DNA from: an uncultured Haloferula sp.
GTDB taxonomy: Bacteria; Verrucomicrobiota; Verrucomicrobiia; Verrucomicrobiales; Akkermansiaceae
Reading direction: 5' to 3'
Length of the DNA stretch: 64,000 nt
Assembly (NCBI GenBank): GCA_965652295.1
Contig: CBFGTS010000004.1
Location: 128,001-192,000 of the forward strand
Position 1 is the stretch's first letter; every line of letters begins with the position of its first letter. The notes below the pieces were generated by a model. That model saw only the letters and a list, made by a program, of their open reading frames with translations, had not been told where the DNA came from and did not search any database. Shown piece after piece: positions 41,730 to 44,590 of the stretch. Both the position numbers and the translations under genes were made by a program.

Positions 41730-42929
41730 ATGGCGACGATCGCCGTTTTGGGCACCCTCGACTCCAAGGGGGCGGAGCATGCCTACCTCGCGGAACGGAT
41801 TCGCGAGAGAGGGCACGAGACGCTGCTGATCGATGTCGGCAGTGGAGGCCCCCCCACGGTGGCTCCCGATATTTCCCGCGAGGAAGTGGCCGCGGCCGCG
41901 GGCTTGGATTTGGGCCCGTTGCTGAGCCGCCACGACCGGGGCGAATGCGTGACCGCCATCGCGGCGGCGGCACCCGTGATGATCGCCGGGCTCGTGGGTG
42001 AGGGCCGGATTCACGGCCTGATCTCCGCTGGAGGCGGGGGAGGAACCGCGATCGGAACGGCGGTGATGCGTCAGCTGCCGCTCGGGTTTCCGAAGCTGAT
42101 GGTTTCCACGCTCGCGAGCGGGAACACGTCGCCCTACGTGGGAACGAGCGACTTGGTGATGATGCCCAGCATCGTCGATGTCGCGGGTTTGAATTCCGTT
42201 TCGCGCGGCGTGTTCGCACGGGCCGCGGGGGCGATCTGCGGCATGGTCGAAGCACGGATCGAGTCGGACGAGGCGAAACCGCTCGTGGTTGCGAGCATGT
42301 TCGGCAACACCACCGGGTGCATTGAGGAGGCGAAACGGATCATGGAGGAGGCCGGCTATGAGGTGCTGGTTTTCCACGCGACCGGCACCGGCGGGCGGGC
42401 GATGGAGGCTTTGATCGCAAGCGGCATGGTCGCGGGCGTGCTGGACCTCACCACCACGGAATGGGCTGATGAAATGGTCGGCGGAATCCTGTCGGCGGGT
42501 CCGACACGGCTGGATGCGGCGGCTCAGGCGGGAATCCCCGCGGTGATCGCGCCGGGTTGCCTCGACATGGTGAACTTCGGCGAGCGTTCCAGCGTGCCCG
42601 CGCGGTTCGAGCGGCGGAATTTTTACATTCACAATCCGCAGGTGACCCTGATGCGGACCTCGGTGGAGGAAAGCAGGAGTCTCGGAGAGCTCCTCGCGCG
42701 CAAAGCCAACGCTTACCGTGGCCCGGTGGCGCTGGTCCTGCCGGAGGGCGGATTGAGCGCGATCGGGGAAAAGGGTGGTCCTTTTCACGACGGGCAAGCG
42801 GATCAAGCCCTGTTCGACGCCGTGGAACGAGAGGCGAGGATCGAGGTGAACCGTCGCCCGGAGGCCATCAATGACCCGGGTTTTGCAAAATTTTGTGCCG
42901 AGCGGTTGCTGAGTATGCTCGATCGGTGA
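41730..42929 (+). CDS. Tm-1-like ATP-binding domain protein (UPF0261)
   Basis: GTLDSKG.E, GGGGGT, LPLGFPKLMVST, SMFGNTT, FHATGTGG, DLTTTE, DMVNFG, HNPQVTLMRT. Confidence 0.9.
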   Translation: MATIAVLGTLDSKGAEHAYLAERIRERGHETLLIDVGSGGPPTVAPDISREEVAAAAGLDLGPLLSRHDRGECVTAIAAAAPVMIAGLVGEGRIHGLISAGGGGGTAIGTAVMRQLPLGFPKLMVSTLASGNTSPYVGTSDLVMMPSIVDVAGLNSVSRGVFARAAGAICGMVEARIESDEAKPLVVASMFGNTTGCIEEAKRIMEEAGYEVLVFHATGTGGRAMEALIASGMVAGVLDLTTTEWADEMVGGILSAGPTRLDAAAQAGIPAVIAPGCLDMVNFGERSSVPARFERRNFYIHNPQVTLMRTSVEESRSLGELLARKANAYRGPVALVLPEGGLSAIGEKGGPFHDGQADQALFDAVEREARIEVNRRPEAINDPGFAKFCAERLLSMLDR

Positions 42930-43023
42930 GGCGAATGCGCATTTTTTCGCCCTGCTTCTCCGGACGGGTTCATGCAGAGCCTGATTTTCAAATGGTTGCG
43001 GCTGGTGCTGTTAACCAACCTTG

Positions 43024-43571
43024 ATCAAAGCGAGAACCGGACTTTCGTTTGATGAGAAAAATCTGCTGACTTTGAAAATCGCTCTCGCAAGAGCCGATAG
43101 AAGTCAGGGATGACGAGCTTCACTCCAACCCGGGTCCCGATGAGAGGTGACTTCGATCTGGGGGGAAAGAGCTGCCTTGAGGTTGCACTCGGGTGGAGTG
43201 GGCTCGCGTTCCCTGTTCCGGCTTGCGCCAGGGGCGGGAAAAATCGTTTTACCGAGCTGGTTCTCGAAAGAGAGCCCACGGCCTTGGATGCCACCGTGGA
43301 AACGAAGTCGGGGGACTTTCGTCACGCGGATGAGCCCGCCGTGGGTTTAACGACCGGCATGTTTGTGGACAGCGCCGTGGAGGTTCGGGGGAACCATTCC
43401 GGCGCCGTCCAATCCTTCTCCACAGAGAAGCCCGTCCTGAATTCCTCCTGTGGGACCCGGCTGGGGGGCTGGGCCAGGGAGTGGGCTGCTTAGCGGTGCC
43501 CGCAGGACGGGCAATGAAGATGGGACCGTGCGAATTCGGGGGAAGACGCACGAGTCCCATCTTCCTTTTTT
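43024..43571 (+). ncRNA. Candidate large structured ncRNA of serial hairpins, five with GGGG loops
   Basis: About 11 consecutive stems, a GAAA tetraloop (43259-43276), G-U pairs on the + strand, terminal stem followed by T6; no credible ORF. Confidence 0.7.
43517..43571 (+). terminator. Terminator of the candidate ncRNA, convergent with msrB
   Basis: GAAGATGGGAC...GTCCCATCTTC followed by CTTTTTT. Confidence 0.75.
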
Positions 43572-43601
43572 AAAGGAGACGGCAATGTCCCGGGCGGAGC
43601 C

Positions 43602-44150
43602 TCACTCCTTGGTCGAATCGGCCTTCGGGTCTTCGGCGGGAACGAACTTCAGGACCGTGCCATTGATGCAGTAGCGTTGATCGGTCGGAGTGTCGAAGCC
43701 TTCGCCGGTGAAGACGTGCCCCAAGTGGCCATCACACACAGCACAGAGGACCTCGGTGCGGGCGTAGCCCAGCTTGTAATCGGTGGAGGTCTTCACGTTC
43801 CGGGCGTTGGCGGGATCGTAAAATGACGGCCAGCCACAGCGACTGTCGAATTTCTCCTTGGAGCTGAACAATTCGGCTCCGCAGCCGGCACAGTAGTAGG
43901 TGCCTGCGCCCTGCTCCTTGAATTCCTTGTAAACCGTGCCGCTGGGGGCCTCGGTGGCGGCCTTGCGCAGGATGGCGTATTGCTCGGCGGTGAGCTCCTT
44001 CTTCCACTGCTCGTCGGTTTTTTCGACGGGAGCGGTTGGCTGTGCGGGTGGGGTATCAGAGGTTTCCATGACGGTTGGTTTCGGAGATTCGTCGCCACAC
44101 GCGGTCAGCGGCAGGCAGGCAATGAGAAGGGGGAGGAACGGCAACTTCAT
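43602..44150 (-). CDS. msrB: Peptide-methionine (R)-S-oxide reductase, lipoprotein
   Basis: GTYYCAGC, KFDS.CGWPSF, RTEVLCAVCDGHLGHVF, RYCIN; lipobox LTAC. Confidence 0.94.
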   Translation of the reverse strand: MKLPFLPLLIACLPLTACGDESPKPTVMETSDTPPAQPTAPVEKTDEQWKKELTAEQYAILRKAATEAPSGTVYKEFKEQGAGTYYCAGCGAELFSSKEKFDSRCGWPSFYDPANARNVKTSTDYKLGYARTEVLCAVCDGHLGHVFTGEGFDTPTDQRYCINGTVLKFVPAEDPKADSTKE

Positions 44151-44239
44151 GGGGTCATCATGGAGCTGGTGAGCGGTTCGTGCAAGCGGCCCGCAGTGTT
44201 GGGAATTGCCGGCCGGGTGGGGCGGGCACAGGATCGGGC

Positions 44240-44590
44240 ATGTCCGATTCAATCAAGGAGCTGACCCGCCGGGTGCTGGAGTTTTCAACCGCAAGGGAAT
44301 GGGACGCCTACCATAATCCCAAAGATCTGGCGGTGGCGGTGGCCGCGGAGGCAGGCGAGCTGATGCAGCATTTCGTCTGGCAGCAAGGGGAGCAGATTGA
44401 GCGCCGGGTGGCGGAGCGGCGGGACGAGATCGCCGCGGAAATGGCCGACGTGGCGATTCTCCTGATGGAGATGGCGGAACGTTGCGGCATCGACCTGGCG
44501 GATGCAGTGCGGGCGAAGATCGAACTCAACGAAGGTCGCTATCCGGTGGAGAAATCCCGCGGCAACAATCTCAAGTACAACCAGCTTTAG
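44240..44590 (+). CDS. MazG-like nucleotide pyrophosphohydrolase (dCTPase type)
   Basis: REWDAYHNPKDLA....EAGEL, EMADV, KIELNEGRYP. Confidence 0.9.
   Translation: MSDSIKELTRRVLEFSTAREWDAYHNPKDLAVAVAAEAGELMQHFVWQQGEQIERRVAERRDEIAAEMADVAILLMEMAERCGIDLADAVRAKIELNEGRYPVEKSRGNNLKYNQL

Follow-up and report, generated by a model that had tools for sequence, protein, structure and literature searches.

The window, a stretch of 64,000 nucleotides from the genome of an uncultured Haloferula sp. (GenBank assembly GCA_965652295.1), holds a structured RNA in the gap between a UPF0261 (Tm-1-like) gene and msrB. The element was found by blastn to be present in a single copy in its own genome. Features were assigned by single-sequence minimum free energy (MFE) folding, by a consensus fold of homologues and by a full-length consensus of three syntenic orthologs, and are listed below. 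Positions are those of the window unless prefixed with a contig (C) or locus (L) number.

41730-42929, + strand: UPF0261 (Tm-1-like) gene.
42930-43601: gap holding the RNA, between the UPF0261 gene and msrB.
43050-43070, + strand: A/T-rich stretch, GAGAAAAATCTGCTGAC, upstream of the promoter-like block (by eye, unscored).
43071-43100, + strand: promoter-like block, with TTTGAAAAT at 43071-43079 (-35-like), 15 nt, and CGATAG at 43095-43100 (-10-like).
43110-43493, + strand: open reading frame (ORF) of 127 codons, ATG 43110-43112, TAG 43491-43493.
43114-43206, + strand: 5' domain, a long-range helix of 43114-43135 with 43187-43206 enclosing G-loop hairpin 1 (covariation).
43146-43176, + strand: G-loop hairpin 1, G run 43160-43165 (consensus fold columns 87-117; helix 4, 89.3% paired).
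43212-43238, + strand: TTGC-loop hairpin (MFE; kept in the three-ortholog consensus, columns 153-177).
43263-43272, + strand: small GAAA-loop hairpin (single-sequence MFE only; a gap in one ortholog).
43302-43322, + strand: G-loop hairpin 2, G run 43310-43314 (columns 241-262; in two of three orthologs, lost in L003).
43366-43411, + strand: G-loop hairpin 3, G run 43387-43391 (columns 312-357, several compensatory pairs).
43416-43429, + strand: small hairpin CTCCACAGAGAA with a CACA loop (columns 361-376, nearly invariant in three orthologs).
43424-43566, + strand: stretch matching short-RNA model R2 (C4:171424-171566, 34.1 bits, E 8.7e-5).
43430-43512, + strand: 3' domain, helix of 43430-43439 with 43503-43512 (MFE and three-ortholog columns 377-457).
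43445-43481, + strand: G-loop hairpin 4 inside the 3' domain, G run 43463-43468.
43483-43501, + strand: hairpin inside the 3' domain, with the stop codon in its loop.
43516-43570, + strand: terminator-like hairpin with G loop 5 (G run 43538-43542), then T6 at 43565-43570.
43602-44252, - strand: msrB.

The + strand was folded to an MFE of -269.4 kcal/mol, against -219.6 +/- 7.2 kcal/mol for shuffled sequences (z -6.93), and 0 of 100 shuffles were as good. Folding of the - strand gave a z of -6.11, so the strand is not given by folding energy alone. All five G runs described in the earlier note (6, 5, 5, 6 and 5 G in order) are present and cap hairpins. Four form GGGG tetraloops in the single-sequence MFE structure, on stems 43307-43309/43314-43316, 43382-43386/43391-43395, 43456-43462/43467-43473 and 43535-43537/43542-43544; the first run takes the form TCT-GGGG-GGA only in the homologue consensus fold, where columns 98-100/105-107 correspond to 43157-43159/43164-43166. 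The small GAAA hairpin and the long terminal hairpin (43516-43564) with its T6 tract, both also described earlier, were found again. The latter, a G+C-rich hairpin running straight into a U tract, has the form of an intrinsic terminator and contains 3 compensatory pairs in the three-ortholog consensus (columns 463-512); a simple terminator scan returned 0 sites because its rule needs a short stem beside a loop of 3-8 nt. A stem had also been drawn at 43024-43053, and a hairpin does occur there, but it lies upstream of the conserved part and is absent from homologues in the alignment. The window RNA is the long form of its family, about 465 nt in length, and occupies roughly 43105-43571 of the + strand. 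A separate hairpin, GGCGAA...TTCGCC at 42930-42951, lies directly behind the UPF0261 stop codon and may be the terminator of that gene.

The window RNA is one member of a family of folded RNAs that had not been catalogued before and is restricted to a single genus of Verrucomicrobia from soil and marine habitats. A covariance model, R1, was built from the first 165 nt of the element (5' domain), the first 50 nt of which are the promoter-like block. Of 35 genomes of the genus, 30 contained R1 matches, which fell at 54 places and mostly numbered 1-3 in each. A family-wide sample gave matches in 13 of 15 genomes of this genus and in 1 of 16 from a second one; none of the 119 genomes sampled from 18 other genera had a match. 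Covariance models were needed because blastn was too insensitive, recovering parts of the long form in 6 of 34 other genomes of the genus (2 in the same gene context, 4 elsewhere) and the short form in 2 of 34. An exact-pattern scan of genome contigs returned 8 loci, 5 of them duplicating loci already collected. The long-form collection comprised 44 copies; carriers are Haloferula/Luteolibacter-type Verrucomicrobiaceae, cultured type strains among them.

Two genomes carry three long-form copies on one strand within ~9 kb (L044:3348-11931 and L045:3354-12840), with genes for a CHAT-TPR protein, an S8 peptidase and a ShlB-type transporter between the tandem copies. The tandem-copy neighbours in genome G004 (CHAT-TPR protein, S8 peptidase, ShlB-type transporter and a TyrRS/TrpRS-type synthetase) suggested no functional link. 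Most long copies (for example L058, L061 and L066) also share GTAGTRTTC just before the penultimate hairpin, an element absent from the window's subfamily. It is kept at the RNA level, because its TAG is a stop codon in many copies and is read in another frame (NVVF) elsewhere.

Covariation was counted in an alignment of 32 sequences of the 5' domain. Taken as counts and not as probabilities, because the model itself guided the alignment of these related sequences, 79.1% of cells were paired compared with 36-47% when partners were slid, both sides had changed at 29 of 30 pairs, 173 cells had changed on both sides compared with 35-70 when slid, and 0 of 500 shuffles reached the observed pairing values. 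The full-length consensus of the three syntenic orthologs contains 154 pairs, of which 34 are compensatory, and takes in G-loop hairpins 1, 3, 4 and 5, the 3' long-range helix and the terminator. G-U pairs are frequent in the 5' domain alignment (pair 114/142, CG 20 and UG 10; pair 64/183, UA 13 and UG 8) and, together with the U tract, favour the + strand, as had been called earlier. On the homologue and covariation check proposed in the earlier note, stems covary and the loop is conserved among homologues. A multivalent regulatory RNA, as suggested there, is a reasonable reading of a conserved structured RNA that carries one loop motif on variable, covarying stems.

The loop motif was analysed in 41 copies, which contain 225 runs of at least 5 G; 152 of these are of exactly 6 G. 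With 620 nt taken per copy, such runs are ~12 times as dense as in the genome at large, where 6332 occur in the 8.74 Mb of both strands. TC or CC precedes 156 of the 225 runs and pairs with the last two G, leaving a GGGG tetraloop closed by C-G. The apex YC-GGGG-GR is kept while the stems vary and covary. Behind the run the next two nucleotides are AA in 59, AT in 28 and AC in 23 of the 225. With a contiguous stem of at least 5 bp required, a test that misses bulged stems and whose score is helped by YC before the run, 108 of the 225 runs cap a stem, and with shuffled 3' flanks the average was 43.9 and the highest value 61; genome-wide the figure is 360 of 6332. The runs fall in different codon phases (LGG, SGD and RGN in the window; PGG, SGG and RRGT elsewhere), so the motif belongs to the RNA level and not the protein level. 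Terminator-like hairpins with a GGGG loop number only 8 of 461, and the locus in this genome that resembles the MISL RNA has mostly GNRA loops and 2 runs of G5 or more. The G loop is no general habit of the RNAs of this clade. YC closure and the strict run length suggest that it is the shaped loop that matters rather than a free seed.

Hairpins of this kind could also be DNA-level palindromes of the REP/BIME type, spread by RAYT transposases and accumulated in the gap. The genome has 12 Y1-transposase matches, three of which were read as stand-alone RAYT-like genes, and many long copies have GTAG just before the long hairpin. However, the REPs beside the three RAYT genes are other hairpins with conserved stems (CCGGTGG...CCACCGG and GCCCCGGAGGGGC), whereas here the stems vary and the loop is fixed. 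Order and place are moreover kept across species with compensatory changes, and the G-U pairs are strand-specific. An origin as mobile palindromes is considered extremely improbable.

Upstream of the RNA lies a block of the form TTGRAAAT-N15/16-CGATWG, common to long and short G-loop RNAs and a few protein genes. The pattern TKGRAAAY-N-CGATWS-N-ATG is present in 43 of the 44 long copies, 36 of which have 15-16 nt as the spacer, and AAAAATTT-type stretches precede the block in other copies much as the A/T-rich stretch does in the window (by eye, unscored). Each long member is made up of the block, an ATG 8-9 nt behind it (measured from the -10-like element, this distance was found in 26 of 43 copies), 4-7 hairpins, and at its end a hairpin that is G-looped too and runs into a U tract.

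Short relatives of ~135-190 nt carry the same block upstream and consist of two G-loop hairpins, the second being the terminator; they are without an ORF. In the window's genome, three of the places that carry the block are short loci of this kind, each with two G loops and no ORF. The short G-loop RNAs were located as follows.

L069:892-1082, - strand: short G-loop RNA.
L070:471-659, + strand: short G-loop RNA.
L071:496-706, + strand: short G-loop RNA.
C11:50953-51086 (L091), window's own genome: short G-loop RNA.
C3:59158-59289 (L093), window's own genome: short G-loop RNA.

Model R2 was built from the transcribed part of short RNAs only, with the promoter block excluded. It matched 23 places in 9 of 35 genomes; the window's genome and G021 have 7 each and G032 has 3. 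One of the matches in the window's genome is 43424-43566, in the 3' domain of the long RNA, and the orthologous place in G021 also matched (37.4 bits). Of the 23 R2 matches, 11 have the block no more than 110 nt upstream, and these 11 are all among the 12 best; the chance expectation is 0.0043 block matches per 115 nt. Because it is shared by the long copies and the separately found short RNAs, the block is read as a putative promoter.

ECF-type promoters have a -35 element with an AAC-like core, a spacer of 16-17 nt and a -10 element with a CGT-like core. Transcription from the block would be by an alternative, ECF-like sigma factor; this part of the reading draws on position and on consensus sequences, and the own-genome search assigned no cognate sigma factor to the block. 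A sigma-28 promoter was considered and set aside, as there was no FliA above the cut-off and no FlhA, and a 285-aa sigma factor was RpoS/group-2-like. A leader hairpin between the promoter boxes was also discarded as weak (best stem mean 4.63, compared with 4.05 with the spacer shuffled).

The block also precedes genes for membrane proteins of 165-168 aa (L036:1501-2053 and L043:1501-2043), which have nothing else in common with the family, and a gene for a 192-aa single-pass protein (L068:1612-2227; C9:10611-11229 in the window's genome), where the block overlaps the 3' end of a preceding 312-aa ORF. The proteins behind other copies of the block matched no Pfam family. Such genes may be further members of a regulon.

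Two other repeats were seen near these loci. The first is a string of G runs (GGCCCCGGTCTCT-G6-AGAGAGCC-G4-CC TTTC-G5...) followed by a conserved tail of ~60 nt. It occurs in 4 copies, at places including L097:130-460 (C13), L070:~710-860 (C21:24010-24150) and C3:58920-59000, each of which adjoins a short G-loop sRNA; if the opposite strand is the one read, its loops would be CCCCCC and so complementary to the G loops. The second is a tandem CCTGCCCTTTC-type repeat at a contig end (L097:1-55, the start of C13).

The gap had been described as holding no credible protein, and this needs qualifying, because the 127-codon ORF at 43110-43493 is selectively kept open across the family; it does so without conservation at the protein level. 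An ORF of 98-143 codons runs from the conserved ATG in 39 of 41 copies, and 43 of 44 retain the ATG itself, its distance from the block being fixed. In codons 2-99 of 32 sequences, stops number 2 in frame 0, 62 in frame 1 and 61 in frame 2. In frame 0, no stop-creating change was seen among 1043 substitutions in 14 disjoint pairs chosen among intact copies, for which 28.3 were expected. At the amino acid level, pN/pS in frame 0 is 0.67-1.31 in 23 pairs, no different from the off-frames, and differences by codon position in 14 pairs are 378/387/397. The neighbouring UPF0261 gene, taken as a control between the same two genomes, gave 50/34/164 and a pN/pS of 0.22. The frame is thus selected to stay open with its amino acids unconstrained, since stops are avoided and yet pN/pS is ~1; constraint is seen instead on the features of the RNA. 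Protein-level conservation of this ORF had been named in the earlier note as grounds for withdrawing the RNA call; the open frame and its ATG are conserved but the amino acids are not, and the RNA call stands because the ORF is conserved as an open frame only.

These data bear on the alternative that the locus is an ordinary small protein gene, encoding a fast-evolving, disordered, Gly/Arg/Ser-rich product of 98-143 aa, with the hairpins as mRNA-stability or regulatory elements. Besides the retained ATG, the open frame and the missing stops, frame 0 has the best codon usage (log-odds -0.03, compared with -0.36 and -0.22 in the off-frames and 0.2-0.27 in real genes) and the highest GC3 (GC3 > GC1 > GC2), and indels between close copies are mostly multiples of 3. 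Frame 0 carries a weak coding signature, which keeps a protein role in play. Against a working protein stand the pN/pS of ~1 and the flat codon positions, and also the compensated frameshifts between L035 and L058 (gaps of 3, 1, 1, 1 and 4) and the lack of a fixed codon phase for the G runs. The hairpins are kept in two copies that have lost the frame, L025 (without the ATG) and L059 (stop after 36 codons), and the short paralogues have no ORF at all. The ORF product matched no Pfam family, and a search of 5.8 billion proteins for relatives (69-223 aa) returned only its own 69-aa fragment, 99% identical. An AlphaFold2 model of the product, made from a shallow alignment of 10 sequences, had a mean pLDDT of 48.6 and a pTM of 0.12 and was without secondary structure. 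An ordinary small protein gene is judged unlikely. The label of non-coding RNA is nevertheless probably wrong for the window RNA: the long forms would begin almost at the AUG (leaderless or nearly so) and be translated, and since the frame is kept open and the amino acids are ignored, translation probably serves the RNA rather than a working protein.

The position of the ATG has also been weighed as a sign of an RNA directed at the ribosome, that is, a leaderless message that would detain or stall 70S ribosomes under stress through its internal G runs, which resemble Shine-Dalgarno sequences, so that translation as such would be its function. The 8-9 nt between the -10-like element and the ATG in 26 of 43 copies and the open, unconstrained frame are in line with this, and GGGGG could pair with CCUCC through one G-U pair. 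The short relatives, however, carry the same loops without an ORF, and the hairpins would hide the G runs from a scanning anti-Shine-Dalgarno sequence; a ribosome-directed function is regarded as very unlikely.

The window was compared with known RNAs using Rfam. No family matched at gathering score anywhere in the window, so that novelty was not removed by this check, which had been proposed earlier. At E values up to 10, the region 42850-43700 gave only chance matches to eukaryotic and archaeal families and none for MISL. The earlier suggestion that the RNA belongs to MISL did not hold: RF03079, a 751-position model, is without a match in the window, and its match in this genome lies on another contig (C14:12554-13447, - strand, equal to L098:1501-2394), with 255.6 bits against a gathering score of 274.6. 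MISL is likewise a large structured RNA of Verrucomicrobia and is found in the same genome, but the MISL locus differs from the G-loop RNA in its mainly GNRA loops and its contig.

CsrB, RsmY and RsmZ are chains of hairpins that present an A(N)GGA loop motif and act as sponges for CsrA. The G-loop RNA is like them in having variable stems, one short G-rich loop motif, a terminator at its end and several paralogues per genome. Unlike them, it has a GGGG loop closed by C-G in place of A(N)GGA and, in its long members, an ORF that looks translated; the Csr/Rsm models of Rfam did not match in the window. S. aureus RNAIII carries C-rich loops and the short conserved hld ORF. The G-loop RNA is of similar length to RNAIII (about 0.5 kb) and likewise combines numerous hairpins, a single recurring loop motif and an internal ORF, but its loops are G-rich, its ORF of 98-143 codons spans nearly the whole RNA and is unconstrained, whereas hld is short and conserved, and there is no Rfam match. 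The G-loop RNA resembles CsrB/RsmZ and RNAIII in design and, by these comparisons, is a member of neither, nor of MISL. A further parallel is with MicA, RybB and MicL, sRNAs that depend on Sigma-E/ECF factors, with ECF promoters such as TGAAAC-N16-CGTA. Here too several sRNAs have one putative promoter of an alternative-sigma type, and TGRAAA-N16-CGAT resembles ECF promoters; the differences are that no Hfq was found and that the common element is the loop motif and not a 5' seed.

Candidate protein partners were sought in the genome, which is 98% complete. CsrA (PF02599) gave 0 matches in its six frames, in a search that detected the controls, and searches for Hfq and ProQ were likewise negative. 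As none of the three classical global RNA-binding proteins was found, a protein partner would have to be a new one.

Taken together, we favour a reading in which the window RNA acts as a multivalent decoy. The element would be transcribed as a + strand RNA, present several G tetraloops and undergo translation as well. The G loops would act in trans by titrating a factor that recognises the closed GGGG apex; a protein is a likelier candidate for this factor than an RNA. Translation may keep the full-length transcript made or stable, or may melt the hairpins and so gate the availability of the loops. A loop of 4 nt is small for a sponge site, and the searches for CsrA, Hfq and ProQ left this reading with no binding partner; its probability is put at roughly 0.4.

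The same loops could instead be the seeds of a base-pairing regulator, directed at C-rich stretches or loops or at the CCUCC anti-Shine-Dalgarno tail of 16S rRNA. Up to six G would be exposed if the two closing pairs opened. G-loop pairing would mirror the C-rich loops used by RNAIII and RsaE of S. aureus. The repetition of one loop motif over many stems, with several in each RNA, fits such a regulator, and so does the finding of no Hfq, ProQ or CsrA, as is the case where strong G-C loop pairing works without a chaperone. The second repeat family on C13, C21 and C3, if read on its other strand, would offer CCCCCC loops as partners. The YC that closes the loop to 4 nt in 156 of 225 runs nonetheless hides two G and makes for poor kissing geometry. 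Pairing specificity would be low because C5+ runs are so common (6332) in a genome of 63.5% G+C, and the 16S 3' end was not found in the assembly by regular expression. Base pairing through the G loops is accordingly the main rival of the decoy reading and is held to be possible, if somewhat unlikely.

The multivalent-decoy reading can be extended to a G-tetraloop regulon under one alternative-sigma promoter, whose leaderless long members would be translation-gated RNA sponges with the passage of the ribosome as their sole 'product'. By melting or protecting the GGGG-capped hairpins, translation would turn the decoy on or off. We consider this extended form rather doubtful.

Public reads were searched for the element. 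Five runs contain 25-38% of the sampled words, and six contigs from four public runs have a depth of 2.4-5.5 and are without information on ends, strand or level. One contig, whose source run was presumed and not known to be RNA, ends at 43571 in loose A-rich sequence, and one low-depth metatranscriptome contig of a relative covers 43269-43615. None of these contigs demonstrates transcription of the element. A literature search found no publication on GGGG-tetraloop or G-rich-loop sRNAs of Verrucomicrobia, or on MISL there. The main text of PMC5737381, whose motif list would be in the supplement, contains 0 occurrences of MISL, Verrucomicrobia or GGGG.

A multi-copy, promoter-linked family with a strict GGGG tetraloop points to a new RNA-recognition system. 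To our knowledge, the regulatory RNAs of Verrucomicrobia are almost unknown. The recognition system would be either a new loop-binding protein or pairing of G loops with C-rich sequence, and the G-loop RNA is a concrete bait for it. Bench experiments on the family are feasible, as it occurs in cultured type strains. The long members provide a clean natural case of a frame held open by selection while its amino acids drift, which bears on the origin of dual-function RNAs and of new genes, and on the question of whether an RNA, and not a protein, can be what translation serves.
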